A stretch of 54,557 nt of DNA from Escherichia phage mEp044. A program made the translations under genes and the position numbers. Of this stretch, positions 3,887 to 28,488 are shown piece by piece. The DNA lies in the sequence record PP180004, one strand, 5' to 3'. How positions within the stretch are numbered: position 1 is the first letter of the stretch; every line of letters begins with the position of its first letter. The notes under the pieces were generated by a model. The model saw only the letters and a list, made by a program, of their open reading frames with translations, did no database searches and was not told where the DNA came from.

Positions 3887-5302
3887 TTAAAAAGATGCGT
3901 TATTCTGATTGTTTCGTTGGTTAAAACGGCTTGTGCGATGATTCATTGACTGAATGCACGCTGCGGCTGCGCGCGCCTGGTCGCATGGCAAGATATTACC
4001 GTTGTCATCAAACCGCTGGTAAACAGTTCCAGACTTACCATGACGGTTTTTTGACACAATGATTTCCATGTATTCGCGGGCAACAGACTGCTCGTCGTAA
4101 TACCCATCGCGGTAAACCATGATTATTCTGTCGGCATCTTGCTCAAGGTTGCCGGAATCGCGCAGATCAGAATTATTCGGGCGCTTGTTCGGTCGTTCCT
4201 CAACGCGGCGGGACAACTGCGCCAGCGCTAACACTGGAACGCGCAATTCTTTTGCCATCATCTTCAACGACCATGACAATTGCCCTACAGCGAGATCATG
4301 ACGTTCGGCCTTAGCCAGCTTCATTAACCCGATATAGTCAATCATTACCATACCCAGGTTCGGGTGATCCTGCTTCATGCGTTCCGTTGTTGCGCGTATT
4401 TCCTCAACCGTTAACTGCGACGCGTCAACGATCCACACATCAAGGTTAGCAAGTGCGCTCATACCCTGGCCGACATGCGCCCACCCTTCATCATCAAGTT
4501 TTACCGGATTGCGCAGGCAGTCAGTTGATAAATTACCAGCGCCAGCGATAGCGCGCTCAGTCATCTGATCGAGTGACATTTCAAGCGTGAAGAACAAAAC
4601 GCCAACCCGCTGATCCTTGCTGCCAGGGTAAGGGCGTTCAGCAGCAGAGCGGGCAATTGCCAGCGCAAACGCAGATTTACCAGACCCAGGGCGTCCGGCG
4701 AGAAGCACCAGATCAGTAGCGTTAATGCCGCCTAACATTTCGTCGAGTGGTTCTATCCCTGTTTTAATGTTGTCAGAATTGACACCGCATTCCATGCGCT
4801 TACTTAAAACTTCTGTGTACTCCTGGACAGCATCGCGCAACAGAACAGGGATAATCTTGTCTTTCGTTACCTTTAATTTTGAATAACGGGAATCAAAATC
4901 TTTCATCGTCTCTTTGACGACCTCAAGCGTCCCCGTCTCCAGTTTGTAGCGCATATCGTCGATGAGTTCCAACATCTGCCGCCGCTGGTACTCTTCACGT
5001 AGTAGCTGTGCGTATCCCTTCAGGTTGGCAGCAGACGGGCACGATCTCGCCGTTTGCATTAGCGGTACGAAATTTTCATTACCAATCTCATCACCTACCA
5101 GCAATGCATCGATGAGATTCCTGTTTCTGGCTTGCGCCCGGATAATTTCAAAAGCCCTCTTATACAGCGGAATAGTGAACACTTCAGGATCAAGCGTGGC
5201 GAGAACATCTTGCGCGTTAGGAGTTAGGCCGCCCAACAGCAGCCCACCGATAACTGACGCCTCACGTTCCTGCCGTAGTGAGTTTATTTGCTCAGTTACC
5301 AT
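3887..5302 (-). CDS. replicative DNA helicase, DnaB family
   Basis: 471 aa; DnaB N-terminal EREASVIGGLLLGG; Walker A GRPGSGKSAFAL; RecA-like core. Confidence 0.9.
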   Translation of the reverse strand: MVTEQINSLRQEREASVIGGLLLGGLTPNAQDVLATLDPEVFTIPLYKRAFEIIRAQARNRNLIDALLVGDEIGNENFVPLMQTARSCPSAANLKGYAQLLREEYQRRQMLELIDDMRYKLETGTLEVVKETMKDFDSRYSKLKVTKDKIIPVLLRDAVQEYTEVLSKRMECGVNSDNIKTGIEPLDEMLGGINATDLVLLAGRPGSGKSAFALAIARSAAERPYPGSKDQRVGVLFFTLEMSLDQMTERAIAGAGNLSTDCLRNPVKLDDEGWAHVGQGMSALANLDVWIVDASQLTVEEIRATTERMKQDHPNLGMVMIDYIGLMKLAKAERHDLAVGQLSWSLKMMAKELRVPVLALAQLSRRVEERPNKRPNNSDLRDSGNLEQDADRIIMVYRDGYYDEQSVAREYMEIIVSKNRHGKSGTVYQRFDDNGNILPCDQARAAAACIQSMNHRTSRFNQRNNQNNASF

Positions 5303-5320
5303 TATGTCATTACCTCCTGT

Positions 5321-6463
5321 TTACAAAATGGAAAATTCAGGGTAATAAACAAAGCGCCCGATCTCCCCATGATCCGGGCTGTAAATAATCACCGCTGCCA
5401 GACGCCGCGACCTCCAACCTCCATTAGTCGAATATGCATCTTTGCCCGCTAACGTGCCGTGATACTCAACAACGCCTAACGATGATTCAATCAGCCTTTG
5501 ATGATGCCAGTGCCCGCAATGAGCGTAAACCGCAGACGACTTGCCAAAGTCTTCCCGCCAGTCAGCTACGCAAGCAGACAATAAATTTTCCGGCTTTTTG
5601 ATAGTGTGCCCGTGGTGGTAAGCAAGGAATGTTTTCCCGTACTGCGTGTGGTGGACGATAGTAGGTGACACATCAACCGTCACGCGCGGTTCATCTTCGT
5701 AAAAAGCCGCCAGCGCCGCACGTAGCCAAATCATACCAGACTGGTCATGATTCCCTGATAACACCTGGATTTCCACATCCTTATGATTTAGCAACATCTT
5801 TCCTACCGCACGCCGGACAGACCGGATCGCCACATAAACAAGTTTTGCGTAGCGCGAATCGCAATCAAGAACGTGATTACTTGATGGCGTCACTGGTAAC
5901 AATCCGTCAGTGTGAAGCAGGTCGCCACCGAGAAGCAAGACCGCTTTTTCACTCATAGGAGCAGCGCCAACAGCATAATCAAAGAAGTTATTTAGCACGC
6001 GTTCAGCGATCCCAGTGTCGTAGCTCTCGCCGCATTCAGCTTTATGAGCAAGCGCGCCGATATGCAGATCAAATACCGGATAAAGGGCAAGGCTTTTTTG
6101 AAAATCAATTTCAGGCACTGGCACGGCATCCGCGCGTGGTATTTCCTCCGTGAATGCGTCGCGGGCAGCTTCCATTAGCCTTTCCATTTCATCGCGGTCA
6201 CGGGCTGTTTTAATCCAGCGCATGACCGTATTCCCAGCCTTATCGACAAGAACAGATTCACCAGTAACGCCAAAACCCGGCGCGCGGCGCGTTGATAATA
6301 AACCGCGTTTCGCCAGCTTTGCGCCCAGGCGCTCGACGTTGCGTTTTGACATGCCAAATTTTTCGGCGATCTGTTTATACGTTAAACCGTTGTTATATTC
6401 AGCGATCAATTGCTCATCGCTGATTTTTCTTTGCGACATAATGTTAATTCCTCCAGTTAACAA
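5321..6463 (-). CDS. N-terminal HTH fused to calcineurin-like metallophosphoesterase
   Basis: 380 aa; HTH LTYKQIAEKFGMSKRNVERL; phosphoesterase motifs DLHIG, GGDLLH, GNHDQ, HHGH, GHWHH. Confidence 0.7.
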   Translation of the reverse strand: MLTGGINIMSQRKISDEQLIAEYNNGLTYKQIAEKFGMSKRNVERLGAKLAKRGLLSTRRAPGFGVTGESVLVDKAGNTVMRWIKTARDRDEMERLMEAARDAFTEEIPRADAVPVPEIDFQKSLALYPVFDLHIGALAHKAECGESYDTGIAERVLNNFFDYAVGAAPMSEKAVLLLGGDLLHTDGLLPVTPSSNHVLDCDSRYAKLVYVAIRSVRRAVGKMLLNHKDVEIQVLSGNHDQSGMIWLRAALAAFYEDEPRVTVDVSPTIVHHTQYGKTFLAYHHGHTIKKPENLLSACVADWREDFGKSSAVYAHCGHWHHQRLIESSLGVVEYHGTLAGKDAYSTNGGWRSRRLAAVIIYSPDHGEIGRFVYYPEFSIL

Positions 6464-9758: not shown

Positions 9759-10406
9759 ATGAAAACAAAATGGTATGACTTAGCAAAACAACTCATGCGG
9801 GCGCAGGGCATGAGCCAGGATTCATTGGCTGATCTTATGGGGATAACCAAAGGCGGCCTTTCTCACTGGTTGAACGGTCGCCGTGAGCCGAATCTTGAAG
9901 ATATTGCGCGGATCATGCGGGCGCTTGGGCGTCGGCAGTTCACTGTCACACATGATGGAATGGTCATTGATGATTCTGTTTCTAACACGTTGCCGGGAGC
10001 GCCACCGCGTGATTTAGGCAGTTACCCGGTTGTTGACTGGAAGGATGTAGTAAACAATATGGAAGATGCAAGGCGATCAACATTACCACACGTTACGACT
10101 AGCGTTATTTGTTCAGATGATAGTTATTGGCTGGTAGCTAAAGGCGAATCAATGAACGCGCCGCAAGGGTTAAGCATCCCGGCGGGTACTATGATACTTG
10201 TTGACCCGCACGCGCCAGCTATTGACGGCAAGCTCGTTATAGCCCAACTGGAGGAAGGGCAGACGCCTACGTTTAAACAGTTGATTATTGATGGAGGCCG
10301 AAAACTTTTGCGTTCACTTAATCCGTTGTATCCGCCGATCCCTATGAATCCAGAATCAAAAATCATTGGCGTGGTTGTTGATGCGAAGATCGTAAACCTG
10401 CCATAA
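9759..10406 (+). CDS. cI: CI-type repressor (HTH plus LexA-like S24 peptidase domain)
   Basis: 215 aa; N-terminal HTH; C-terminal AKGESM ... K motifs of S24 autopeptidases. Confidence 0.9.
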   Translation: MKTKWYDLAKQLMRAQGMSQDSLADLMGITKGGLSHWLNGRREPNLEDIARIMRALGRRQFTVTHDGMVIDDSVSNTLPGAPPRDLGSYPVVDWKDVVNNMEDARRSTLPHVTTSVICSDDSYWLVAKGESMNAPQGLSIPAGTMILVDPHAPAIDGKLVIAQLEEGQTPTFKQLIIDGGRKLLRSLNPLYPPIPMNPESKIIGVVVDAKIVNLP

Positions 10407-10411
10407 ACACT

Positions 10412-11774: not shown

Positions 11775-12193
11775 TGAGCTTAAATTTAATCACACTTGGC
11801 GGTAATATCGGGAATGATATGGAAGTTCGCTACACACAAAACGGGAAAGCGATTGGTAGTTTTCCGTTAGCTGTAACGAATGGCTACGGTGATAATAAAC
11901 GGACAATGTGGATAACTTGCCTGGTATTTGGCGAGCGTGCGGAAAAATTAGCGCCACATATCCGCAAGGGCGGGAAAATAGTGGTAAGCGGTCGCCTGGA
12001 CGTTCGGCAATATGACCGGAACGACGGCACGAAGGGAACTGCGGTGGAAGTGGCGGTCAATGAGTTCGAATTTTGCAGCAGGAACGATCAGCAACCACAG
12101 CAACAGCCACAGCAACAGCAACAGCAACAGCAGAATTATAGCGGTGGATATAAAGAGCCGCCAATGGATTTTGATGATTCGATCCCGTTTTAA
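11774..12193 (+). CDS. ssb: single-stranded DNA-binding protein
   Basis: 139 aa; OB-fold N-terminus, Q/P-rich linker, acidic tip DFDDSIPF. Confidence 0.85.
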   Translation: MSLNLITLGGNIGNDMEVRYTQNGKAIGSFPLAVTNGYGDNKRTMWITCLVFGERAEKLAPHIRKGGKIVVSGRLDVRQYDRNDGTKGTAVEVAVNEFEFCSRNDQQPQQQPQQQQQQQQNYSGGYKEPPMDFDDSIPF

Positions 12194-12208
12194 ATAAATA
12201 GGTTAGCG

Positions 12209-12487
12209 ATGGGCGATTATTTAAAAACGCCACCGCCGCCGCGAACAAAAGAGCAAGTATTAAAAGAAGCCCGTGATCATATCGATCATGGGCTTTTTTT
12301 ATGTGGAACGGCAGCGGAACGGATGGCAAAAAGATTTAGTGACCTGTACGCAAAACAAATATGGTTCGACAACTGGCAGGCAAGTTTTTACCCGCTGCAA
12401 AGAAAACCGGATATGCACTGGCCTGAATATGTCGATCCACGTATGCGCAAATATCGCGGTCGTATGGGCCAGGTTATTAACGATTGA
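12209..12487 (+). CDS. hypothetical protein
   Basis: 92-aa ORF. Confidence 0.4.
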   Translation: MGDYLKTPPPPRTKEQVLKEARDHIDHGLFLCGTAAERMAKRFSDLYAKQIWFDNWQASFYPLQRKPDMHWPEYVDPRMRKYRGRMGQVIND

Positions 12488-12726
12488 TGGGGTATCAAAT
12501 CATGATCGAAGAAAAAGAAGTTGATAAAGAAATGCCTGACACAGCAGATGACTATGTCACTTTTAACGGCGGCCTGTATGAGTTCGAAACGTCTGCGGGC
12601 TGGCACGATAAATGGCCTATGCCAACGCGCAAGGAATTAAGCGAACGTAAAACATTTGGCGAAGATGCCGAACGCCTGGCCAATAACAAATGGCTTGATA
12701 AGTTTATTGCGGAGGGTGGCAAATGA
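12484..12726 (+). CDS. hypothetical protein
   Basis: 80-aa ORF. Confidence 0.4.
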   Translation: MMGYQIMIEEKEVDKEMPDTADDYVTFNGGLYEFETSAGWHDKWPMPTRKELSERKTFGEDAERLANNKWLDKFIAEGGK

Positions 12727-12836
12727 ACCTTGCAAAAATTGCCGCATTGCTTGCGGCTTTGTCTATCGCTGTGCTGTATCTCAGCGTATCGCTTTATATC
12801 ACGGTAGCGATCATTAAACTCATTGCTAACATGTGA
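12723..12836 (+). CDS. 37-aa hydrophobic single-helix membrane peptide
   Basis: manual translation MNLAKIAALLAALSIAVLYLSVSLYITVAIIKLIANM. Confidence 0.35.
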   Translation: MNLAKIAALLAALSIAVLYLSVSLYITVAIIKLIANM

Positions 12837-12844
12837 GGTTAATC

Positions 12845-12967
12845 ATGAAAGTCGGTAAGGATATTGTGACGGTCGCGTTTTGCATTATTTGCTTCCTGTT
12901 TTCGGTTGTATTTTGTGGCGCACTTGCGGCGGTGATCAGCTTTATTGGTAAAGGGGTGATATTATGA
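12845..12967 (+). CDS. 40-aa hydrophobic membrane peptide
   Basis: manual translation MKVGKDIVTVAFCIICFLFSVVFCGALAAVISFIGKGVIL. Confidence 0.35.
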   Translation: MKVGKDIVTVAFCIICFLFSVVFCGALAAVISFIGKGVIL

Positions 12968-13236
12968 TTCCGTGGAATGCAAAAGCTGGTGATCTGGTTG
13001 TTTTGCCTGCATATCGTAGTGATCCTGGTCTTGTGGTGCTGAATAAAGCATGTATAGAAATTGAGCGCCCGATCCTGGTCAAATACCTGGACGGAACAAT
13101 TATAGAGCCTATTTTCTTCGACAAGATTGAGCTGAAGGCCCGTAATGTTCGCGTTAAGCCGTTCCGGGCTTATGTTGAAGACCACTGGCGGAAATTGTTC
13201 GCCGGACTGAATGGGATGTACGGCGTATGGCTATAA
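12964..13236 (+). CDS. hypothetical protein
   Basis: 90-aa ORF. Confidence 0.4.
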   Translation: MIPWNAKAGDLVVLPAYRSDPGLVVLNKACIEIERPILVKYLDGTIIEPIFFDKIELKARNVRVKPFRAYVEDHWRKLFAGLNGMYGVWL

Positions 13237-13418
13237 AATTGGTGAAAGTTAAAGATTTAAAAGGCGGCGAAAAACTCCGCGCATGGTTCGGATATGAATT
13301 TATTGCTACTGCCTTTCATTTCGGGAAAGGGGGCCAGGTAACAATTTTTGATGAAGATTACGACGAAGTTGGGCAATGGCATCTTGAGCAATATATCGAG
13401 GTGTTAAATGAAAATTAA
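13227..13418 (+). CDS. hypothetical protein
   Basis: 63-aa ORF. Confidence 0.35.
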   Translation: MAIKLVKVKDLKGGEKLRAWFGYEFIATAFHFGKGGQVTIFDEDYDEVGQWHLEQYIEVLNEN

Positions 13419-13740
13419 ATTCCATAAAGCATATGATAGCCAGACAAACAAGCTATCACTATTTATTGAGTTCGAACGCCGGATCGTGGTTGTTCCTTAT
13501 TCTCGGCGCTTTAATGATGCAGCAGGGCGGAGACAGTTCGCGTTAGATATGTTGTTACGCGGTTGCGGCCTTATGCGCCCGCTATCTGATTTAAAACGGA
13601 TGATGCCTGGATCGTTCGGTCAGATTGATGAAATTGAAGTAAGCCAGGAAGAGCTAAAACGGGCGCGTGATTTGTTCCTTTCAAGCGAAGGAAACCCGTT
13701 TAATCCAGAAACTGAAATGAAATGGCATCACCAACTATAA
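13408..13740 (+). CDS. hypothetical protein
   Basis: 110-aa ORF. Confidence 0.4.
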   Translation: MKIKFHKAYDSQTNKLSLFIEFERRIVVVPYSRRFNDAAGRRQFALDMLLRGCGLMRPLSDLKRMMPGSFGQIDEIEVSQEELKRARDLFLSSEGNPFNPETEMKWHHQL

Positions 13741-13752
13741 AGGATAAATATC

Positions 13753-14373
13753 ATGAACGACATCAAAACAGCTTATTCACTCGGAAGCGATGGCATGTTA
13801 ATCACTCGCTACGCTGAAGATGCAAGTTTTCACGAAGTTGAAACGAAGGATTATCACGAAGTATTAAAAGATATGGAATCTGGCGCGTATGACGCAGATT
13901 TGAATCTGGCTTTACAGATTGTTGATATTATGATGGACGCGTCGATCCGCGATTATGTGTCTTTGGACGCTGAAGAAAAAACTGCTATAGCTCGTTATGT
14001 CTTCTGCCTAACTTTCGTGAAACGAATGGAAGAGGAATATGGTCGCGTGCCAGTGCCGGAAGAAATTGACCCGCTGGCGTTCGGAAGCGCTGTTATTTTC
14101 CCGTTAGATGAAAATCATACTGGTAGCGTTGCGCTGTATTCTATGCGCGGCGTAATGAAAAGTATTTTTGAGGCCAAAGCGCTACAGAAGTGCATTGATG
14201 AAGGGCACAGCGAAGAAGACGTAATGGCTATCATGCCGTTGTTTTATGGAGAAATGGTTGGTAATAACATGCGTGCAAATGATTTAGGTGTGCAGGCGGC
14301 TATAACTGTTCTTAATGAAGCACGGAAAATGGCACAGCCAATGCCTGAGCCGGAAAAACGTGTACTGCATTAA
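13753..14373 (+). CDS. hypothetical protein
   Basis: 206-aa ORF. Confidence 0.5.
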   Translation: MNDIKTAYSLGSDGMLITRYAEDASFHEVETKDYHEVLKDMESGAYDADLNLALQIVDIMMDASIRDYVSLDAEEKTAIARYVFCLTFVKRMEEEYGRVPVPEEIDPLAFGSAVIFPLDENHTGSVALYSMRGVMKSIFEAKALQKCIDEGHSEEDVMAIMPLFYGEMVGNNMRANDLGVQAAITVLNEARKMAQPMPEPEKRVLH

Positions 14374-14472
14374 CATCGTGATTGCGATCACATAGATATA
14401 CATTTTGTGTTGTGATCGCGTATCCGTTTTGTAAACTGAAATCAAAAGGTTTACGGTACGGAGGAAAACAAG

Positions 14473-14691
14473 ATGCCGCGCGAATTGATGCTTTATTGCG
14501 TAGAAGGTGGCGTGGGACATGATGCCTACGTCGCAGGGAAAAGCTATCCAGCAGATGAAGTGCTTTCTAATATGCACTTCCGGGAAAATGAACACCAGGT
14601 GTCTGTATGGAAGCGATGCGTTGATGGCATTGAGTTAGTTAGCCTAGAAAGATATTTGGGTAAATTTGACTACGCATTGATCGAGGCTTAA
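14473..14691 (+). CDS. hypothetical protein
   Basis: 72-aa ORF preceded by GGAGGAAAA. Confidence 0.45.
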   Translation: MPRELMLYCVEGGVGHDAYVAGKSYPADEVLSNMHFRENEHQVSVWKRCVDGIELVSLERYLGKFDYALIEA

Positions 14692-14789
14692 CTATGGACG
14701 AAGCATTGCTATTCATGTGCATTTGCTGGGGTTTTATTGCCTTATGCCTGTTTATCAGGTGGTTTATTGAATACCACATGAGGTGAGTT

Positions 14790-14981
14790 ATGAAAAAGGT
14801 TGGCGAATACATGATACCGGATAACGCTAAATTAGCCGGGATAGGTCAACTTGGTTGTTATTACTATAACTGTGTCGGTGATATTTATCAGGTCAGTATT
14901 GTTGGTGGCGTACAGCATTTTCGTCTTATGCACTTTGAATTAAGCGAACTTAAAAAGGCGGTGTTAATGTATGAAGTTTAA
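14790..14981 (+). CDS. hypothetical protein
   Basis: 63-aa ORF. Confidence 0.35.
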   Translation: MKKVGEYMIPDNAKLAGIGQLGCYYYNCVGDIYQVSIVGGVQHFRLMHFELSELKKAVLMYEV

Positions 14982-15174
14982 ACAGTATAAAGAATGGAAG
15001 ATTCCAGAGGAAGCAAAAAAGGCAGCGCCCGGAAGGTTTTCTGGCGTTTATTTTTATATGGATGGTAAATGGTATTTCGGCAGCAGGCCGGATCACTATT
15101 ATCAAGAATTATGCAAATCTCACACATGGGACATTAAGGAGCGCGTGCAAGGCGGTGTAATAGACGAGGTTTAA
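14971..15174 (+). CDS. hypothetical protein
   Basis: 67-aa ORF. Confidence 0.35.
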   Translation: MKFKQYKEWKIPEEAKKAAPGRFSGVYFYMDGKWYFGSRPDHYYQELCKSHTWDIKERVQGGVIDEV

Positions 15175-15175
15175 A

Positions 15176-15412
15176 ATGGTTAAGAGCTTTTTTAACTGGT
15201 TGGGGGCGTGGCTTTTGGCTACGCTTTTTGTTTTCTTGGCGGCCCTGACTGTTATCGGTATTATCATGCTGGTGGCTATGTTTATTACGTGGTCGCTGCC
15301 TGAATTTAACGACATTGGGAATATTCTTTTTGCAGCCCGCGCTTTATTGGCTGTTAGCGCATTCATTGGTTTTTGCTGGACTGTGGCGCCTGATTGGGGT
15401 GATGAATGGTGA
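15176..15412 (+). CDS. small membrane protein (two predicted TM helices)
   Basis: 78 aa, hydrophobic. Confidence 0.4.
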   Translation: MVKSFFNWLGAWLLATLFVFLAALTVIGIIMLVAMFITWSLPEFNDIGNILFAARALLAVSAFIGFCWTVAPDWGDEW

Positions 15413-15650
15413 TCCTATGGCTTTGTTCAATATGTCAGAACTGCAATTTAATGCCGTAAAAGCCGCCGCCCGCGCTGCACTTTCTGCTTGCAAAGCGGAG
15501 GTAGAGAAAAACGGCTACAGCGATAAAGCTACACGGCTGATATTAGAAAAGCATTATCGCAAGGTCGCCCCACTAATCAGTATTGAGCGTTTTGTATGGT
15601 TGGTGGGGTATCTCAATAACCGATGGGGGACTGACCAGGATTATTTTTAG
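15315..15650 (+). CDS. hypothetical protein (start uncertain)
   Basis: 111-aa ORF overlapping the previous gene. Confidence 0.3.
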   Translation: MGIFFLQPALYWLLAHSLVFAGLWRLIGVMNGDPMALFNMSELQFNAVKAAARAALSACKAEVEKNGYSDKATRLILEKHYRKVAPLISIERFVWLVGYLNNRWGTDQDYF

Positions 15651-15653
15651 TGT

Positions 15654-15663
15654 GGGGGGGGGG
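15654..15663. repeat. G10 homopolymer forming the Shine-Dalgarno region of the Dam-like gene
   Basis: ten consecutive G between the upstream stop (15650) and ATG 15669. Confidence 0.8.
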
Positions 15664-15668
15664 TAATA

Positions 15669-16208
15669 ATGAAAAATGATTTCGGAGGCAGCAACACGCC
15701 GAAGGAAATAAAAGACCTGTGGCAGACGCCTAAACCAGTTTTCAGGGGAATGGACCGCGAGTTTGAATTTGTCGCTGACGTTGCGGCAAACAAGGCAAAC
15801 GCGCTAGTTCCGCGATATATAACCGAAGAAATGGACACGTTGCATTATCCGTGGGGAGCGGTGGCAATGCCTGGTGAGTATGTCTGGATGAATCCGCCAT
15901 ATTCGAATCCCGGGCCATTCGTTGATAAGGCGGCGCTAGAACATCATCGAAATCACATAGGTTGCGTAATGTTATTGCCCGCTGACGTTTCTGTTAGCTG
16001 GTTTATGAACGGCATTGAGACGGCAAACGAATGCCGATTAATCACGCGCGGTCGGCTGGCGTTTATCAATGCTGCGACAGGGAAACCAGTGAGCGGAAAC
16101 AATAAAGGGAGCTTGTTTTTGATCTGGCATCCACGATGCAGACATGAATGTATTTTTACACACATAACACGTAAAGAGCTATACGCAAGAGGTGCAGATA
16201 ATGACTAG
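15669..16208 (+). CDS. dam: phage-type DNA N6-adenine methyltransferase (Dam family)
   Basis: 179 aa; NPPYS catalytic motif and WQTP N-terminal motif. Confidence 0.8.
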   Translation: MKNDFGGSNTPKEIKDLWQTPKPVFRGMDREFEFVADVAANKANALVPRYITEEMDTLHYPWGAVAMPGEYVWMNPPYSNPGPFVDKAALEHHRNHIGCVMLLPADVSVSWFMNGIETANECRLITRGRLAFINAATGKPVSGNNKGSLFLIWHPRCRHECIFTHITRKELYARGADND

Positions 16209-16698
16209 TGCGGCAGATTTACTACGAATCGCAGCGGAAACAATTGAGCAAAGAGGTAAACAAAACGGATACGACAGAAAAGAGGAAAAATCGGCGCCAA
16301 AAATAGCCACTATATACAACGCTAAGAAGGGGGCAAATTTAACACCACTTGATGTATGGGATCTGTTGATTTGTCTCAAGGAGGCGCGATTAGAGGCCAT
16401 TTTAGTTAATGGAAGCGATCCGACAGACACACTGATAGATTTAATTAGCTACAGCGCACTGAAAGCGGAGCAAGTATTAACGGAGCGTGAGAAAGAGCAA
16501 AAGGAAAAACAGGCCGCTTTTGATCTCCCTATTGGCGGATTGGTAAAAGGTGAGGCGATAACCAGTTGTAAGGGATTGCCACCTTCTATGCTTGCCCCTC
16601 AATGTGGCTGCATTCCAACTAGTGTTGGCGTGAAGTTTAATAGGGATAATGCTATTCGTGACAAGAGGTATGACCCAAATGAAAAAGGTGGCAATTGA
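16201..16698 (+). CDS. hypothetical protein
   Basis: ORF 16192-16698, start taken at ATG 16201. Confidence 0.45.
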   Translation: MTSAADLLRIAAETIEQRGKQNGYDRKEEKSAPKIATIYNAKKGANLTPLDVWDLLICLKEARLEAILVNGSDPTDTLIDLISYSALKAEQVLTEREKEQKEKQAAFDLPIGGLVKGEAITSCKGLPPSMLAPQCGCIPTSVGVKFNRDNAIRDKRYDPNEKGGN

Positions 16699-17182
16699 CA
16701 GGTTATTGGCCTGCGTTTATGTCGCCGTTTTCGTGATCATCAACCTTATTGTTAACCATTGCGGCCCGTGGGTAATTCCGATCACCACGGTAGCCGCTGT
16801 GTGTGTCAATATGATGATCCGTGACTTCCTGTTGTATGACGGCGGCCTGAAATGGTCTGCTACAACATGCGCCGCCGCTGGCGCAATTACTGTGCTGATA
16901 AATTACGACGCCGGAATGGTGGCGATAGCGTCATTCGTTGCGGTTGTTTCCGGTGCGCTTATTTCTGGCGGCGTTTACCGGGTTTTACCTGGTGATTTCG
17001 ATTCTAAGCGCTGGCCTGCAAATATAGCGTCCGCCATTGGCGATGCGTTAATTTTCCCGACGCTATCGTTTATGGCATTTATGCCTGAAATATCAGCTAT
17101 GCAATTTATCTCAAAAATGGCAGCGGTAACGGTGATCACTATCATCATGCGCCGATATTTCACGTTTGAGGGCAGAAAATGA
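16679..17182 (+). CDS. multi-pass integral membrane protein; weak resemblance to VUT/YhhQ-type transporters
   Basis: ORF 16649-17182 trimmed to ATG 16679 preceded by AGAGGT; about 5 hydrophobic helices. Confidence 0.45.
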   Translation: MKKVAIDRLLACVYVAVFVIINLIVNHCGPWVIPITTVAAVCVNMMIRDFLLYDGGLKWSATTCAAAGAITVLINYDAGMVAIASFVAVVSGALISGGVYRVLPGDFDSKRWPANIASAIGDALIFPTLSFMAFMPEISAMQFISKMAAVTVITIIMRRYFTFEGRK

Positions 17183-17937
17183 GCAAGGCTAAACACTGGT
17201 TAAATAACTGGCTAAGAAGTTGGGTTGTATGGTCGCTGTACGACGGCAGCGGGTACGCCGTTAAAGATTGGGCGGAAGCAGGATATAAATGCTATTGCTT
17301 CAACTATGACGGCGCAAATCACGGCGATTATGAAGGCGTTAAAATAATTCATCCAAATATTGAATATGTCAACGTCTGGATTGATAGCCATTTCCTGGTA
17401 ATGTTCTCCCCTGAATTGTCTGTATATCCAGATCCTGACATTATCTTGGGTTTTCCGCCATGCGACGATCTCGCTGTGTCTGGCGCTCGCTGGTTCGCTG
17501 ACAAGCGAAAAGAAGATCCTGACTTCCAGGTGAAGGCGGCGAATAGCGCCAAACTGGTAGAAAAACTGGCGAATATGCACAACGTGCCGTGGATGGTGGA
17601 AAATCCTGTTGGCGCACTGTCAACTCTATGGCGTAAACCTGATTTTATATTCAACCCGTGCGCTTACGGTGGCTACCTGCCGGAAGATGACAAACATCCT
17701 GCTTTCCCGGATGTTTATCCGCCGCGCGACGCGTACACGAAAAAAACTTGCATATGGTGCGGCAACGGATTCAAACAGCCGCTTTTTAGACCTGTAGATC
17801 TTAACTCTGGTGATAACCCTGGATGGGCGAAAACAGGAGGCAGGACGAAACGAACAAAGATGATTCGCTCACTAACGCCGCGTGGCTTTGCCCGTGCTGT
17901 ATTCCTGGCTAACCATAACAGCGCTTTACCGGACTGA
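17179..17937 (+). CDS. short C5-cytosine methyltransferase-like protein
   Basis: 252 aa; motif I-like LYDGSGY..AGY, motif IV-like GFPPCDD..SG, motif VI-like ENPVG; no obvious target-recognition domain. Confidence 0.55.
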   Translation: MSKAKHWLNNWLRSWVVWSLYDGSGYAVKDWAEAGYKCYCFNYDGANHGDYEGVKIIHPNIEYVNVWIDSHFLVMFSPELSVYPDPDIILGFPPCDDLAVSGARWFADKRKEDPDFQVKAANSAKLVEKLANMHNVPWMVENPVGALSTLWRKPDFIFNPCAYGGYLPEDDKHPAFPDVYPPRDAYTKKTCIWCGNGFKQPLFRPVDLNSGDNPGWAKTGGRTKRTKMIRSLTPRGFARAVFLANHNSALPD

Positions 17938-18096
17938 AATTTACAAAATGGCGTCATTGCGTGATGCTGATCACATAATGGCGCTTTTCACCTTGTTCTG
18001 ACGTATCCATTTTGTATACTTCAAACAAGCAAAATGCTCTTTAAAAATCCGGCAGCGCTGAAATGCGTAGAAATCACCTGAAAAGGAGAGAGCATT

Positions 18097-18273
18097 ATGC
18101 CTTTTGATAATTACCAATGGCATGACGACTATGAACGAGAAAGCGTCATGCGTGCAATGTGCAATGTATGCAGCACGAAGAAAGGAGATTGCAACGAGTG
18201 CAACGAATGTTTAGATCATTGGCTAAGGGCCGGACACGCCGAAAGGCTGAACGAAACAGAGAATCAAAAATAA
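18097..18273 (+). CDS. 58-aa Cys-rich small protein (NinF-like position)
   Basis: manual translation; strong AAAAGGAGAG ribosome-binding site. Confidence 0.45.
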   Translation: MPFDNYQWHDDYERESVMRAMCNVCSTKKGDCNECNECLDHWLRAGHAERLNETENQK

Positions 18274-18287
18274 TCGGGGTGGTTTTT

Positions 18288-18893
18288 ATGCAGAACCCTA
18301 AAAAACCCATACGACGCCGTTGCAAGTGCTGCGGCGTTTTTTTTGAGCCTAAATATCACAATCAAACGTGGTGCAGTGATGAATGTCTGGAAGAACTGAA
18401 GTTTGACCAGCTATGCCGCGACCGTGAAAAGGCTATGAAGGCTATGGAGCGTAAGAAACGACGCGACAGCCAGCGGGAAGAGCGCAACCGGAAGCGGAAG
18501 CAGTTGCACCCGCGAAGCTACTGGATACACCAGGCGCAAACCGTATTTAACGCATACATACGCGAACGAGACGCAGGACAACCGTGTATATCTTGCGGTA
18601 CTTACTATTACGAGCAATGCGGAGCAGACGCGGGCCATTATAGATCTGTGGCGGCGGCTGGGCATCTTCGATTCAACGAAGATAACGTGCATTTACAATG
18701 CAGACATTGCAACCAGATGTTAGACGGCAATATTGAGGCTTATCGACCTGCACTGATTCGAAAAATTGGCCTGGCAAGGGTGGAGGCGCTTGAGAACAAT
18801 AACGAAGTTCACAAATGGACTATCGAAGAATGCAAGGAGATCGCAAAAGTTTATCAGGCTAAGTTAAACGCCTTAAGGAGAAAGGCAGCATGA
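18288..18893 (+). CDS. ninG: NinG/Rap-family protein
   Basis: ORF 18159-18893 with likely start at 18288; Cys/His-rich HNH-like motifs. Confidence 0.7.
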   Translation: MQNPKKPIRRRCKCCGVFFEPKYHNQTWCSDECLEELKFDQLCRDREKAMKAMERKKRRDSQREERNRKRKQLHPRSYWIHQAQTVFNAYIRERDAGQPCISCGTYYYEQCGADAGHYRSVAAAGHLRFNEDNVHLQCRHCNQMLDGNIEAYRPALIRKIGLARVEALENNNEVHKWTIEECKEIAKVYQAKLNALRRKAA

Positions 18894-25931: not shown

Positions 25932-26389
25932 AGACGTTAATCATCGCCGCTGTTGTTTGCATTGTTGTTGGCCTTGTTGCCGCGCTCAGTCATTGCCAGT
26001 CAGTGATAAACACAATGCAAAGCGAGCTAACGACCACGCAAGGCGCACTGAAAACAGCAAGTAACACTATTCAGCAGATGAAGGAGCGAAACGCCGAACT
26101 GTCAAAACTTGATAAGAGGTATCACGATGAAATTAAAGCTATCAGATCTGACATTGCCGATCTGCGCACTGGCATTGATAGCGGCACTATCAGGCTGCGC
26201 GTCAACGCAATACCAGTGCGAGTGTCCGACCCCGCCGGAACCGCCAGCAGCATTGATGGAGCCTCCTGTAGACTCACTCCCGACGCTGAATCGGCTTATC
26301 TATCCCTCAGAGAACAACTAAAAGAGAAAGACGCGAAGATAACCGCGCTTCAGGGATACATCAAAACGCAGTGCTTACGCAAAGAATAA
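25919..26389 (+). CDS. Rz: i-spanin (Rz)
   Basis: 156 aa; N-terminal TM helix then coiled-coil periplasmic domain; position after endolysin. Confidence 0.75.
26127..26321 (+). CDS. Rz1: o-spanin (Rz1), lipoprotein embedded in Rz in the +1 frame
   Basis: ORF 26109-26321; lipobox LSGC and proline-rich mature part. Confidence 0.7.
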   Translation: MKLKLSDLTLPICALALIAALSGCASTQYQCECPTPPEPPAALMEPPVDSLPTLNRLIYPSENN

Positions 26390-26667
26390 CAGTGCGTTGA
26401 CGTGTCGCCGTTTCTGCCAGCCAGCCATAACCGGGCCAATCCTTCCCGCGAGCGACGGCGGAAATTCAAAAACACGTAATACCGGGTAAACAACCTCATT
26501 AACAGGTCCGGCGCTACCTGGGTAGAAGAAAGCGCCATCCACCAATTTTATAAAATTCTGTAAACGGTACTAACACAGCGCCGTTTTCAGTGTTTTATAG
26601 CTGTTTTCACTCCCTGCGGTGTCGAGTTTTGCGGGGGTTATATTTTTCAGGATAGAGGAATATTCTG

Positions 26668-27252
26668 ATGGCTAAGGCTAAAGGCATTAAGTTGCCTCAA
26701 TTCAAAGTCCCGCTCTTTGAGCATACAACCGTTTTCTTTTGCCCGACCCGCGAGATGTTCTATGAATTTTGCGAAAAGGCAGGGATCCCAATCGAACCTG
26801 ATTTCGAACTAGCAGGAGGATTAACACTTACTTGCACTGGTGAGAAAGGTGGTAACTTCTACGTGATCGCAGTATTCGACAATGAGTTGGGAACATTGGT
26901 ACATGAATGCGCTCACACCACATTCCATGTTTTAAGTGATGTAGGCGTCGTAGCGACAACTGATCCCAGCCATCCAGCAAATGAGACTTATGCTTACATG
27001 GTGGGCCGTATCTTTGACGCATTTTCCCCCATCCTGGCAGAATCAAATGAAGCACAGGTGGCAGCTATGCAGGCCGCTGAAGTCGTAGAGAAGGCATTAG
27101 AACAGGCAGAAAAGGCGACTGATGCAGCAGAACAGGCAGTTGAACAGGCAGATGAGCCGAAAGAAGAGAAAAAACCAGCTAAGAAAGGCAAACGTAAGCC
27201 GAAAGCAAAAGATGCGTATGTGCCGCGCGTGATGAGCTTTAAACGGGGGTGA
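26668..27252 (+). CDS. HExxH-motif protein (putative zinc metallopeptidase-like) with lysine-rich C-terminal tail
   Basis: 194 aa; LVHECAHTTFH motif; C-terminus KEEKKPAKKGKRKPKAK. Confidence 0.45.
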   Translation: MAKAKGIKLPQFKVPLFEHTTVFFCPTREMFYEFCEKAGIPIEPDFELAGGLTLTCTGEKGGNFYVIAVFDNELGTLVHECAHTTFHVLSDVGVVATTDPSHPANETYAYMVGRIFDAFSPILAESNEAQVAAMQAAEVVEKALEQAEKATDAAEQAVEQADEPKEEKKPAKKGKRKPKAKDAYVPRVMSFKRG

Positions 27253-27254
27253 TT

Positions 27255-27323
27255 ATGCTTACTTTTCTGTTAGGTTTATTTATCGGAATGGTTATCGCTG
27301 TAGCATTTCTATTATGGGAATAA
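27255..27323 (+). CDS. tiny hydrophobic peptide 1 (22 aa, MLTFLLGLFIGMVIAVAFLLWE)
   Basis: manual translation; GGGGTGA 5 nt upstream. Confidence 0.35.
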   Translation: MLTFLLGLFIGMVIAVAFLLWE

Positions 27324-27327
27324 TGTT

Positions 27328-27423
27328 ATGGACTCTTATGTCATAGCAGGATTGATCGGCGTTTCTGTATTTCTGGTGAGTTTTGTTATCGCCGTACTGA
27401 TAACCGTAAAGAGCAAGTATTAG
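27328..27423 (+). CDS. tiny hydrophobic peptide 2 (31 aa, MDSYVIAGLIGVSVFLVSFVIAVLITVKSKY)
   Basis: manual translation. Confidence 0.35.
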   Translation: MDSYVIAGLIGVSVFLVSFVIAVLITVKSKY

Positions 27424-27436
27424 ATGGGGTGGCAAG

Positions 27437-27511
27437 ATGATTGACCCGCTCATTATCCTTTCTGCCTGCGTCGCTGTATGGCTGGCGATCATGATATTCA
27501 TTGAAAGCTAA
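27437..27511 (+). CDS. tiny hydrophobic peptide 3 (24 aa, MIDPLIILSACVAVWLAIMIFIES)
   Basis: manual translation; GGGGTGG upstream. Confidence 0.35.
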   Translation: MIDPLIILSACVAVWLAIMIFIES

Positions 27512-27522
27512 AGGTTCTCATC

Positions 27523-27597
27523 ATGAATATTTACGATCTAATCTGGTGGTCGTTGGTCGCCGTCATTATCTATTTCTGGTGGAAGAATGTTGTATAG
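27523..27597 (+). CDS. tiny hydrophobic peptide 4 (24 aa, MNIYDLIWWSLVAVIIYFWWKNVV)
   Basis: manual translation. Confidence 0.35.
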   Translation: MNIYDLIWWSLVAVIIYFWWKNVV

Positions 27598-27604
27598 GTG
27601 AAGC

Positions 27605-27685
27605 ATGAACGCATACGAAATGCTATTACTGGTGGCTGTAGTTGTAGTCATTGCCGTTGATTTCTATCGAGGGTTTAAAAGATGA
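27605..27685 (+). CDS. tiny hydrophobic peptide 5 (26 aa, MNAYEMLLLVAVVVVIAVDFYRGFKR)
   Basis: manual translation; AGGTGA upstream. Confidence 0.35.
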   Translation: MNAYEMLLLVAVVVVIAVDFYRGFKR

Positions 27686-27753
27686 GAGAAGCAGACTTCT
27701 TTTGCATGATTATAGTGATCGTTATCGTTGCGGTGCTTTTAAGCGTTAACTGA
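27682..27753 (+). CDS. tiny hydrophobic peptide 6 (23 aa, MREADFFCMIIVIVIVAVLLSVN)
   Basis: manual translation; ATGA overlap with peptide 5. Confidence 0.3.
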   Translation: MREADFFCMIIVIVIVAVLLSVN

Positions 27754-27771
27754 ATCGCAGGGGGTTAAAAA

Positions 27772-27840
27772 ATGAAATGGCTTGATTTCTTTTTCCTGAT
27801 TGTTGCGATTGTTCTAACCATGACCGCGCTTGCTCAATAG
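27772..27840 (+). CDS. tiny hydrophobic peptide 7 (22 aa, MKWLDFFFLIVAIVLTMTALAQ)
   Basis: manual translation; AGGGGG upstream. Confidence 0.35.
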   Translation: MKWLDFFFLIVAIVLTMTALAQ

Positions 27841-27899
27841 GTTATGGCTTGGACGCGCATTTTATGCGCTTCCTAAATTAAGTAAGTCAAATAAAGTGG

Positions 27900-27992
27900 A
27901 TGGTAACAGTGAAAGAGCTATTCGACTGGTTGGAAGTATTAACATACTGCGCAAGTTTTGTAGCTTGCGTATACATCATCAATAAATATTGA
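27900..27992 (+). CDS. tiny hydrophobic peptide 8 (30 aa, MVTVKELFDWLEVLTYCASFVACVYIINKY)
   Basis: manual translation. Confidence 0.3.
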   Translation: MVTVKELFDWLEVLTYCASFVACVYIINKY

Positions 27993-28002
27993 GAGGTGAA
28001 AT

Positions 28003-28488
28003 ATGGCCCGCACTAAAAAGGCAAAGGCTGACGATAAAAAGCCAGCAGCCAAAAAGACGGGCCGTCCGCATGGTTATACCGAAGAAAAGGCATTAGAAAT
28101 CTGTGAGCTGGTGGCGGACGGTCAAAGCATTAACAAAATATCGAAGATGCCTGATATGCCTGCGCGTTCAACAATCCTTAAATGGTTCAGAGACGTGCCA
28201 GAGTTCTCGGACATGTACATGCGCGCGAAGGAGATCGGTTTTGAGGTATTGGCTGATGAGATAATAGATATAGCAGATGCAGCGGAGAACATTGATAAAG
28301 ACGAATGCCGCCGCCATCAATTGATGATTGAAACCCGTAAATGGCTACTAGCAAAACTGCAACCGCGTAAATATGGTGAACGCGTCACACAGGAGATCGT
28401 CGGTAACAAGGAAGAAGCACCCGTCAGGGTAGAAGTCACAAAAGAAGAGATCGCCCGCATCGTCCAGGAAGTAGAAGACGAGGTGTGA
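28003..28488 (+). CDS. terminase small subunit
   Basis: 161 aa; lysine-rich N-terminus, HTH region, immediately upstream of the large subunit. Confidence 0.7.
   Translation: MARTKKAKADDKKPAAKKTGRPHGYTEEKALEICELVADGQSINKISKMPDMPARSTILKWFRDVPEFSDMYMRAKEIGFEVLADEIIDIADAAENIDKDECRRHQLMIETRKWLLAKLQPRKYGERVTQEIVGNKEEAPVRVEVTKEEIARIVQEVEDEV

Follow-up and report, generated by a model that had tools for sequence, protein, structure and literature searches.

A predicted zincin-like metallopeptidase of PHROG 1365 with a basic tail, encoded between the lysis and terminase genes of Escherichia phage mEp044

The zincin-type domain and its family

A stretch of 54,557 nucleotides (nt) from Escherichia phage mEp044 (sequence record PP180004), here called the window, carries a complete gene for a protein of 194 amino acids (aa), whose first 131 residues are predicted to form a zincin-like metallopeptidase domain (26668..27060, plus strand). 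The open reading frame (ORF) occupies 26668..27252 on the plus strand, starting with ATG and including the stop codon. On the strength of sequence comparisons, we place the domain, in free-standing form, among the zincins known from polyvalent proteins, and not among the SprT, ImmA/IrrE or WLM domains. The zincin assignment is solid at the sequence level, while the function proposed below is an informed guess. Zincin metallopeptidases of mobile elements are already known, and the family itself is catalogued only as a PHROG without function. What is new is a predicted catalytic set of four invariant residues and a link to the C1 subdomain of the virion RNA polymerase (vRNAP) of phage N4, together with a recurrent site beside terminase or ejection-protein genes and a clade-specific spacer and tail.

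A first-pass annotation of the sequence had described this ORF as an HExxH protein with the string LVHECAHTTFH and a lysine-rich tail, and all of these are present as described, with LVHECAHTTFH at aa 77-87 and the lysine-rich KEEKKPAKKGKRKPKAK at aa 165-181. A Shine-Dalgarno sequence, GAGGA (26655..26659, plus strand), was read from the sequence 8 nt 5' of the ATG and is kept in relatives. With the composition of the window ORFs, the chance expectation for HExxH is about 0.005 per 194 aa; over all window ORFs of at least 60 aa, about 0.66 are expected and 2 were observed. HExxH by itself is at chance level in this window, so the meaning of the motif rests on its conservation.

An exhaustive HMMER search with aa 1-131 against 1.84 billion representatives gave 171 clusters at E ≤ 1e-3, most of them free-standing proteins of about 120 aa (median length 122 aa). 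The first-pass annotation had counted homologues that lack the motif as evidence against its reading. Among the matches listed, 146 of 148 cluster representatives keep HExxH, and the two without it appear to be truncated or frameshifted fragments. The family alignment was made from 117 members, which are 23-40% identical to the query except for two close relatives at 55-65%. Its mean column identity is 17%, and only H79, E80, H83 and E106 are invariant; G51 and Y110 are more than 90% conserved (Y110 in 114 of 117). HECAH (aa 79-83, 26902..26916, plus strand; H79, E80 and H83 in 117/117) contains the two predicted zinc-binding His residues and the predicted catalytic Glu on helix 74-91, and NETYAY (aa 105-110, 26980..26997, plus strand) contains E106 (117/117), which is predicted to be the third zinc ligand and lies where helix 104-130 begins. 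The family motif reads G-V-F-x(4,5)-T-L-[VA]-H-E-x-x-H-x-x-F ... G ... N-E-[TA]-[FY]-[CA]-Y-L. Taken as a signature, the longer string LVHECAHTTFH stands in its HExxH part but not in its last histidine, since position 87 is His in 9/117, Phe in 29 and Tyr in 15. The second His and the Glu are 19-20 residues apart in 105 of 116 relatives, which is the thermolysin-type gluzincin spacing (20 between H146 and E166 of thermolysin), and 23 apart in the query.

The zincin gene is under strong purifying selection. Compared with mEp021 and mEp554, aa 1-131 have dN/dS values of 0.036 and 0.037, respectively, and the spacer and tail taken as one stretch (aa 132-194) have values of 0.17-0.43. The value for the whole ORF against mEp021 is 0.065.

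PHROG 1365, which has no assigned function, matches the query at E=1e-30 over profile positions 3-124 of 127, and it is matched by 116 of the 117 relatives. No family match for the query was obtained with NCBIfam. In PADLOC-DB 2.0, the defence hidden Markov models did not match the query, and the 117 relatives gave three weak matches of a single member each. When the relatives were scanned with Pfam, all zincin matches were below threshold: SprT-like models in 30/117 (best E 4e-4), and M50B, DUF5700, DUF4344, M91, DA1, Reprolysin_2 and M76 weakly in one to three relatives each. Two source names also point to zincins, namely "PolyVal Metallopeptidase superfamily domain" for P0118, which is 59-63% identical to the full-length protein, and "SprT-like family protein" for P0319. 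The Pfam model MPTase-PolyVal (which we take to be PF18818) had no match in the query and does not appear among the 25 families listed for the 117 members. A search for related loci in viral contigs with the 57%-identical relative P0121 found nothing.

The first-pass proposal of an ImmA/IrrE, SprT or WLM domain did not hold. The query has no Pfam match, hhalign gave 5% against SprT, and the predicted third ligand is a Glu; for the WLM (PF08325) and ImmA-IrrE (PF06114) profiles, at most 1 of the 117 relatives could match, and the query does not. The proposal that fared better was the broader one, a metallopeptidase outside the lysis cassette, as the conserved motif, the predicted fold and the profile homology all support a zincin-type domain.

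The closest link was found with N4 vRNAP. Searches of PDB sequences with phmmer and hmmsearch gave weak zincin matches only, to myroilysin (E 0.05-0.07) and to N4 vRNAP (E 0.15-0.9); with the family profile, the latter covers residues 2189-2235 (hmmsearch E 0.15-0.2) and takes in the conserved Gly, a strand and TLxHExxHA. According to Iyer et al. (PMC5512222), the zincin domain of polyvalent proteins in N4 vRNAP spans aa 2130-2448, and recent N4 structures place the C1 subdomain at residues 2124-2375, "with a conserved HExxH motif" (PMC13434306). The match falls inside both regions. An alignment of the vRNAP zincin segment was built from seven N4-like phages for profile-profile comparison, and hhalign of the 117-member family against it gave 92.6% probability (P 4.6e-7, 86 columns), compared with P 0.1-0.5 for a reversed template and six column-shuffled templates, and with 5% probability for E. 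coli SprT (YggI).

The profile match to the vRNAP and polyvalent zincins spans a helix, the conserved Gly, a strand pair and the TLxHExxHA helix, and an N-E-aromatic motif follows on a later helix in both (NEFMAWG in vRNAP, NE[TA][FY][CA]YL in the PHROG 1365 family). Both are phage-borne. The filing as a polyvalent-type zincin is based on this profile match and the likeness of the NE motifs, as against the 5% obtained with SprT. However, the vRNAP zincin is a module of a protein of 2000-3500 aa, whereas here it is free-standing at about 120 aa, plus the tail of this clade. The vRNAP also has an insert of about 70 residues between its two catalytic helices, which the family domain lacks, and, unlike the polyvalent zincin, the query matches no Pfam model.

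AlphaFold2 modelled aa 1-131 from the 117-sequence alignment with a pLDDT of 93.8 and a pTM of 0.88. The model has strands at 11-13, 21-25, 51-57 and 63-69, of which the last two form a pair, and helices at 28-38, 44-48, 74-91 (with HExxH, pLDDT about 97) and 104-130 (starting at NE106). Structure prediction had been proposed as a check in the first-pass annotation; in the model, HExxH lies on one helix and the invariant Glu, E106, on the next, as expected of a gluzincin, and strands 21-25, 51-57 and 63-69 with helix 28-38 precede helix 74-91 in the predicted zincin topology. The zincin core in polyvalent proteins was described as a small sheet and an N-terminal helix followed by the HExxH and Glu helices (PMC5512222), and the predicted model of aa 1-131 matches this core. 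Like thermolysin-type and minimal gluzincins, the domain has HExxH and then a Glu about 20 residues on, on the next helix, and the best structural match of the model is an M3 gluzincin. It differs from the thermolysin type in being a bare catalytic core that has no C-terminal subdomain, and it has no significant match to any MEROPS-type Pfam family. A Foldseek search of the domain model against PDB found nothing; structure searches back the zincin fold weakly.

The C-terminal extension and the genomic neighbourhood

The domain is followed by an Ala/Glu/Gln-rich helical spacer (aa ~122-164, 27031..27159, plus strand), whose length varies among strains, with indels among close homologues. In the full-length model, the last helix becomes one long helix, 103-161, along which pLDDT drops from about 90 to 74. 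The spacer-coding part contains a 42-nt tandem duplication (27071-27154; copies 71% identical), which probably accounts for the variation in spacer length among strains, whose proteins are 157-211 aa long. The lysine-rich tail, predicted to be disordered, covers aa 165-194 (27160..27249, plus strand; KEEKKPAKKGKRKPKAKDAYVPRVMSFKRG), and in the full-length model aa 163-191 have a pLDDT under 50. The last 33 aa of the protein hold 13 K/R and 5 D/E. In the alignment of close homologues, the invariant tail residues are K172, K175, R176, K177, K179, K181, P186 and V188; conservation covers a basic block, KKGKRKxKxK, and the C-terminal end, VPRVMSFKRG. A similar lysine-rich tail is found in P0121. 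Across the family, 12-mers with a net charge of at least +3 stand at 43% for the N-terminal, 22% for the C-terminal and 3.4% for internal positions, and the mean net charge of whole proteins is -3.3. Basic termini on an acidic core fit the binding of a polyanion, and from sequence we infer that these termini may bind nucleic acid or a membrane surface.

As a side observation, the Sf6-type small terminase subunit (TerS) of the window has an extra lysine-rich N-terminal arm (aa 1-26, window 28003-28080; MARTKKAKADDKKPAAKKTGRP). It resembles the zincin tail EEKKPAKKGKRKP in composition and in the local pattern KKPA..KK..GR.P, and BLASTP of the tail against this lysine-rich N-terminus gave no alignment.

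At the DNA level, the window shares about 90-95% identity with the mEp021 group (mEp021, mEp554, mEp515, mEp010, mEp013 and MagusPhagus). These are temperate, Nus-dependent, non-lambdoid coliphages, also called the "mEpimmI" group (PMC11893012). The zincin gene is the orthologue of mEp021_49, annotated as "hypothetical protein", and the full-length protein has 122 clusters of close homologues, nearly all from E. coli prophages. It lies on the late-operon strand, with holin, lysozyme and Rz/Rz1 genes on its 5' side and, on its 3' side, genes for the Sf6-type TerS and then the large terminase subunit (TerL), all according to Pfam. There is no large multidomain polyvalent protein among its gene neighbours in the window.

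Between the zincin gene and TerS lies an array of at least eight tandem mini-ORFs (27249-27992, plus strand), each of about 20-31 aa and essentially one hydrophobic helix. The array occupies 750 nt, and its first mini-ORF begins 4 nt before the zincin stop codon. It is shorter in mEp021 and missing in the divergent relative L018. There, holin, lysozyme, Rz and an ASCH-domain gene come first, followed by about 315 nt of gap and the zincin gene, with TerS only 3 nt further on; the L018 zincin is 57% identical with the same kind of tail, and its terminase is of the Sf6_terminase/Terminase_6C type. Two further relatives, L019 and L020, have Rz, a gap, the zincin gene, a short insert or none, and TerS. 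Because the zincin gene is close to TerS in all three, the array in the window is taken as a later insertion between the two genes. L019 and L020, although otherwise syntenic, carry HNH_3 endonuclease genes at different places: L019 has one between lysozyme and Rz (1752-2273), and L020 has one between TerS and TerL (4250-4753). They look like mobile homing-type insertions.

The same neighbourhood recurs with other terminases. L016 and L017, both lambdoid prophages of Klebsiella, have the zincin gene 3 nt 5' of a Terminase_2-type TerS (Terminase_2/Terminase_6N). Their lysis cassettes differ, but they share one zincin-TerS-TerL unit. In L016, a Tad2-like (PF11195) gene lies directly 5' of the zincin gene (4665-4940 and 5001-5372, respectively). 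If PF11195 is, as we assume, the Thoeris anti-defence protein Tad2, the zincin gene of L016 would have a counter-defence gene as its neighbour between the spanin and terminase genes. In the P22-like contigs L010 and L011, the zincin gene is 10 nt 5' of TerS, which is followed by a Terminase_3 TerL, and in ST64T the order is spanin, one gene, zincin, one gene and TerS.

P22 and HK620 carry the gene at a second site, where it follows the ejection-protein genes 20 and 16 and precedes the tailspike; in HK620 it is hkcC. In P22 (NC_002371.2), an intact 125-aa member with HECAH and NETYCY was found at ~13849-14226 on the plus strand (2489-2866 of our locus L006), between sieA and orf59a/mnt, where RefSeq has no coding sequence, only the sieA promoter. 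Several P22-like phages, among them ST160, UAB_Phi20, Phi75 and SE1Spa, have two matching places each, which points to two diverged paralogues. One (about 45% identical to the query) lies where the lysis and terminase genes adjoin, the other (about 36%) on the sieA side.

Outside these groups, the Ralstonia T7-like phage RSB3 has the order TerS, TerL, endolysin, Rz, zincin at its right genome end. In an E. coli contig (L012/L030), the gene lies within a module of adaptor, internal-virion-protein and lysozyme-like genes. The L030 member, P0354 (136 aa, 10001-10411), is two genes 5' of a 2318-aa LPD38/YkuD protein (11829-18785), which matches the vRNAP PHROG without having HExxH, and the 18 genes examined contain no other zincin. 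This contig looks like a split version of the fused zincin arrangement of N4. Taken together, the zincin gene is an accessory gene that recurs at the head of the packaging genes, in terminases of at least four lineages, beside ejection or internal-virion genes, or among replication genes.

The upstream gap

The zincin gene is preceded by a non-coding gap of 278 nt (26390-26667). The first-pass annotation had called it the largest in the late region; its size and non-coding nature stand, and the ranking holds only if the mini-ORFs at 27249-27992 are coding, as otherwise their 750 nt are the larger gap. No ORF in the gap is conserved among relatives, and a minus-strand ORF of 56-62 aa was rejected, as stops interrupt it in mEp021, L019 and L020. 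A simple sigma-70 scan found no promoter in 26390-26667; over 26300-28100, the scan gave one site, inside the zincin gene, compared with 3.7 expected by chance. Rfam gave nothing credible on 26300-28100.

The folding energy of the whole gap is unremarkable (z = -0.64); RNA structure is visible through comparative analysis only. Several gap elements persist in comparison with L018, whose synonymous sites are saturated, and RNAalifold on five sequences predicted 68 pairs, of which 20 keep pairing through changes on both sides. This evidence for compensatory pairing is suggestive, because nearly all the changes come from L018. A multi-stem element (26400..26477, plus strand) forms a predicted local fold with compensatory pairs in its outer, inner and apical stems. 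It is followed by a long imperfect hairpin of 21 predicted pairs (26548..26600, plus strand), which starts in the invariant TTTATAAAATTC, has compensatory changes in L018 and overlaps the "TERM_6" annotated in mEp021 (26558-26590 by manual coordinate mapping). Finally, an element resembling an intrinsic terminator (26611..26647, plus strand) lies directly 5' of the ribosome-binding site and consists of a GC-rich 9-bp hairpin (26611-26637) and then a U-run, UUAUAUUUUU; it is present in the E. coli subgroup only, and L019 and L020 have a different stem in its place.

The gap had also been put forward as a candidate cos or pac region, for which no support was found. Sf6 and P22 package by the headful, with pac inside the TerS gene; TerS of the window is of the Sf6 type, and the gap holds conserved hairpins and terminator-like elements. 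These elements look like transcript-level signals for termination, processing or stability, and not like a packaging site. The mEp021 record starts at the integrase gene and is therefore uninformative on DNA ends, and the mEp021 paper discusses neither the zincin gene nor DNA ends.

Candidate function and significance

With moderate confidence, we propose that the protein is a late, cytoplasmic, gluzincin-type accessory effector protease of PHROG 1365, whose basic tail binds nucleic acid. The gene would be transcribed with the late operon, 3' of a Q-like regulator (mEp021_37) and the lysis genes, and late transcription would read through the terminator-like hairpins of the gap; the zincin gene may ancestrally have been joined to the small-terminase gene. 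In the protein, H79, H83 and E106 are predicted to hold zinc, and E80 would activate water as the general base for peptide hydrolysis. The substrate may be a protein of the host, of a competitor or of the virion interior. The basic tail would tether the protease to a polyanion, of which phage DNA is the most plausible, by analogy with ArdC or DNA-dependent zincins. ArdC, the anti-restriction protein of conjugative plasmids, consists of an ssDNA-binding (single-stranded DNA) ArdC-N and a C-terminal zincin domain. The mEp044 protein would be similar in pairing a putative nucleic-acid-binding part with a polyvalent-type zincin in a mobile element. Unlike ArdC, it has a lysine-rich disordered tail in place of ArdC-N, and the order of the parts is reversed. 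ArdC-N is carried by 52% of zincin-containing polyvalent proteins (Iyer et al., PMC5512222).

Several observations weigh against this proposal. A Pfam scan of the query at E ≤ 10 gave only unrelated low-complexity matches, and a literature search on the family (hkcC, PHROG 1365, phage metalloprotease anti-defence) gave no relevant paper. The long extension after the domain is limited to the mEp021 clade and a few others. In Klebsiella Drulisvirus VLC2, the zincin gene lies between helicase and DNA polymerase, and in the N4-like phage U1G it lies in a genome-end block of small genes, divergent from the terminase. As positions differ in lytic phages, the terminase adjacency may be a mere hot spot for accessory genes. 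Moreover, mEp021_49 is not labelled as a virion protein in a record that draws on mass-spectrometric mapping of the virion proteins (16 proteins), so abundant packaging is unlikely and the idea of delivery in the virion is weakened.

That last point bears on a bolder version, which we regard as unlikely: the protein might be a DNA-tethered, free-standing counterpart of the protease module of giant ejected proteins, made late and riding the phage DNA by its tail. It would be co-packaged in low copy, or would cut DNA-bound or virion-internal proteins at packaging; on entry of the DNA into the next cell, it would cut a nucleoid protein or a protein of host defence.

An alternative role, about equally unlikely, is that of a DNA-dependent protease of the SprT/Wss1/Spartan type, which would remove cross-linked or tightly DNA-bound proteins before replication or packaging. 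Such proteins (PF10263 and relatives) share with the mEp044 protein a small zincin core, a weak similarity around TLxHExxH and basic segments that might bind DNA. Their case is helped by the weak SprT-like matches in 30/117 relatives (best E 4e-4), by the name of P0319, by the enrichment of basic termini in the family, and by its place beside TerS in several lineages and at the helicase/DNA polymerase site in VLC2. However, the query itself has no SprT-like match, lies below every Pfam threshold, and reaches only 5% with SprT in hhalign. In SprT-like proteins, the third zinc ligand is a His soon after HExxH, whereas here it is predicted to be the invariant Glu on the next helix, and H87 is His in only 9/117. 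The protein also has no zinc ribbon or other defined DNA-binding domain.

The position of the gene directly 3' of Rz-type spanin genes in mEp021-like and ST64T-like phages and in RSB3 would suit an accessory lysis factor that works with the spanins, but we give this little credence, as the protein looks soluble, its sequence showing neither a signal peptide nor a lipobox nor a membrane segment, L016 and L017 share the zincin-TerS unit despite their different lysis cassettes, and other members lie far from lysis genes. Just as improbable is a non-proteolytic HExxH protein, either a hydroxylase of the aKG-HExxH type or a structural factor in packaging or assembly. Ten members weakly match TIGR04267 (mod_HExxH; best E 0.016) and the gene is tightly joined to terminase genes; the query, however, scores 12.8 bits against a cut-off of 40, the four invariant residues and their spacing fit a gluzincin, and the profile homology to a zincin domain is significant. 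The least probable role is that of an ImmA/IrrE-type (M78) anti-repressor protease, which would cleave the phage repressor and trigger induction. M78 is not one of the 25 families listed for the 117 members, of which at most one could match; there is no adjacent gene for a helix-turn-helix (HTH) repressor; and the family is also represented in T7-like and N4-like phages that are strictly lytic. ImmA/IrrE and CapP thus differ from this family, which has no detected sequence match to them and no partner repressor or HTH gene, sits in the late operon and occurs in lytic phages. Absent matches, neighbours and lytic-phage members have already largely refuted this reading.

Neither Pfam nor NCBIfam has a model for the family, and no function has been assigned to it, though it is present in well-studied phages. 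Its carriers include P22, with an unannotated intact copy, HK620 (hkcC), ST64T, epsilon34 and the gut-prevalent mEpimmI group, as well as N4-like, T7-like and jumbo phages. The link between a gene of about 120 aa and the HExxH subdomain of N4 vRNAP offers a small soluble homologue that would be much easier to handle in biochemistry. If the family is neither a counter-defence nor a host-takeover protease, it would be an ordinary accessory gene. If it is one of these, proteolysis would join the known strategies of phages, with a ready set of candidate genes. Should the protein be co-packaged and tethered to DNA, PHROG 1365 would be a widespread, unrecognised class of proteolytic counter-defence, including the P22 gene and hkcC.

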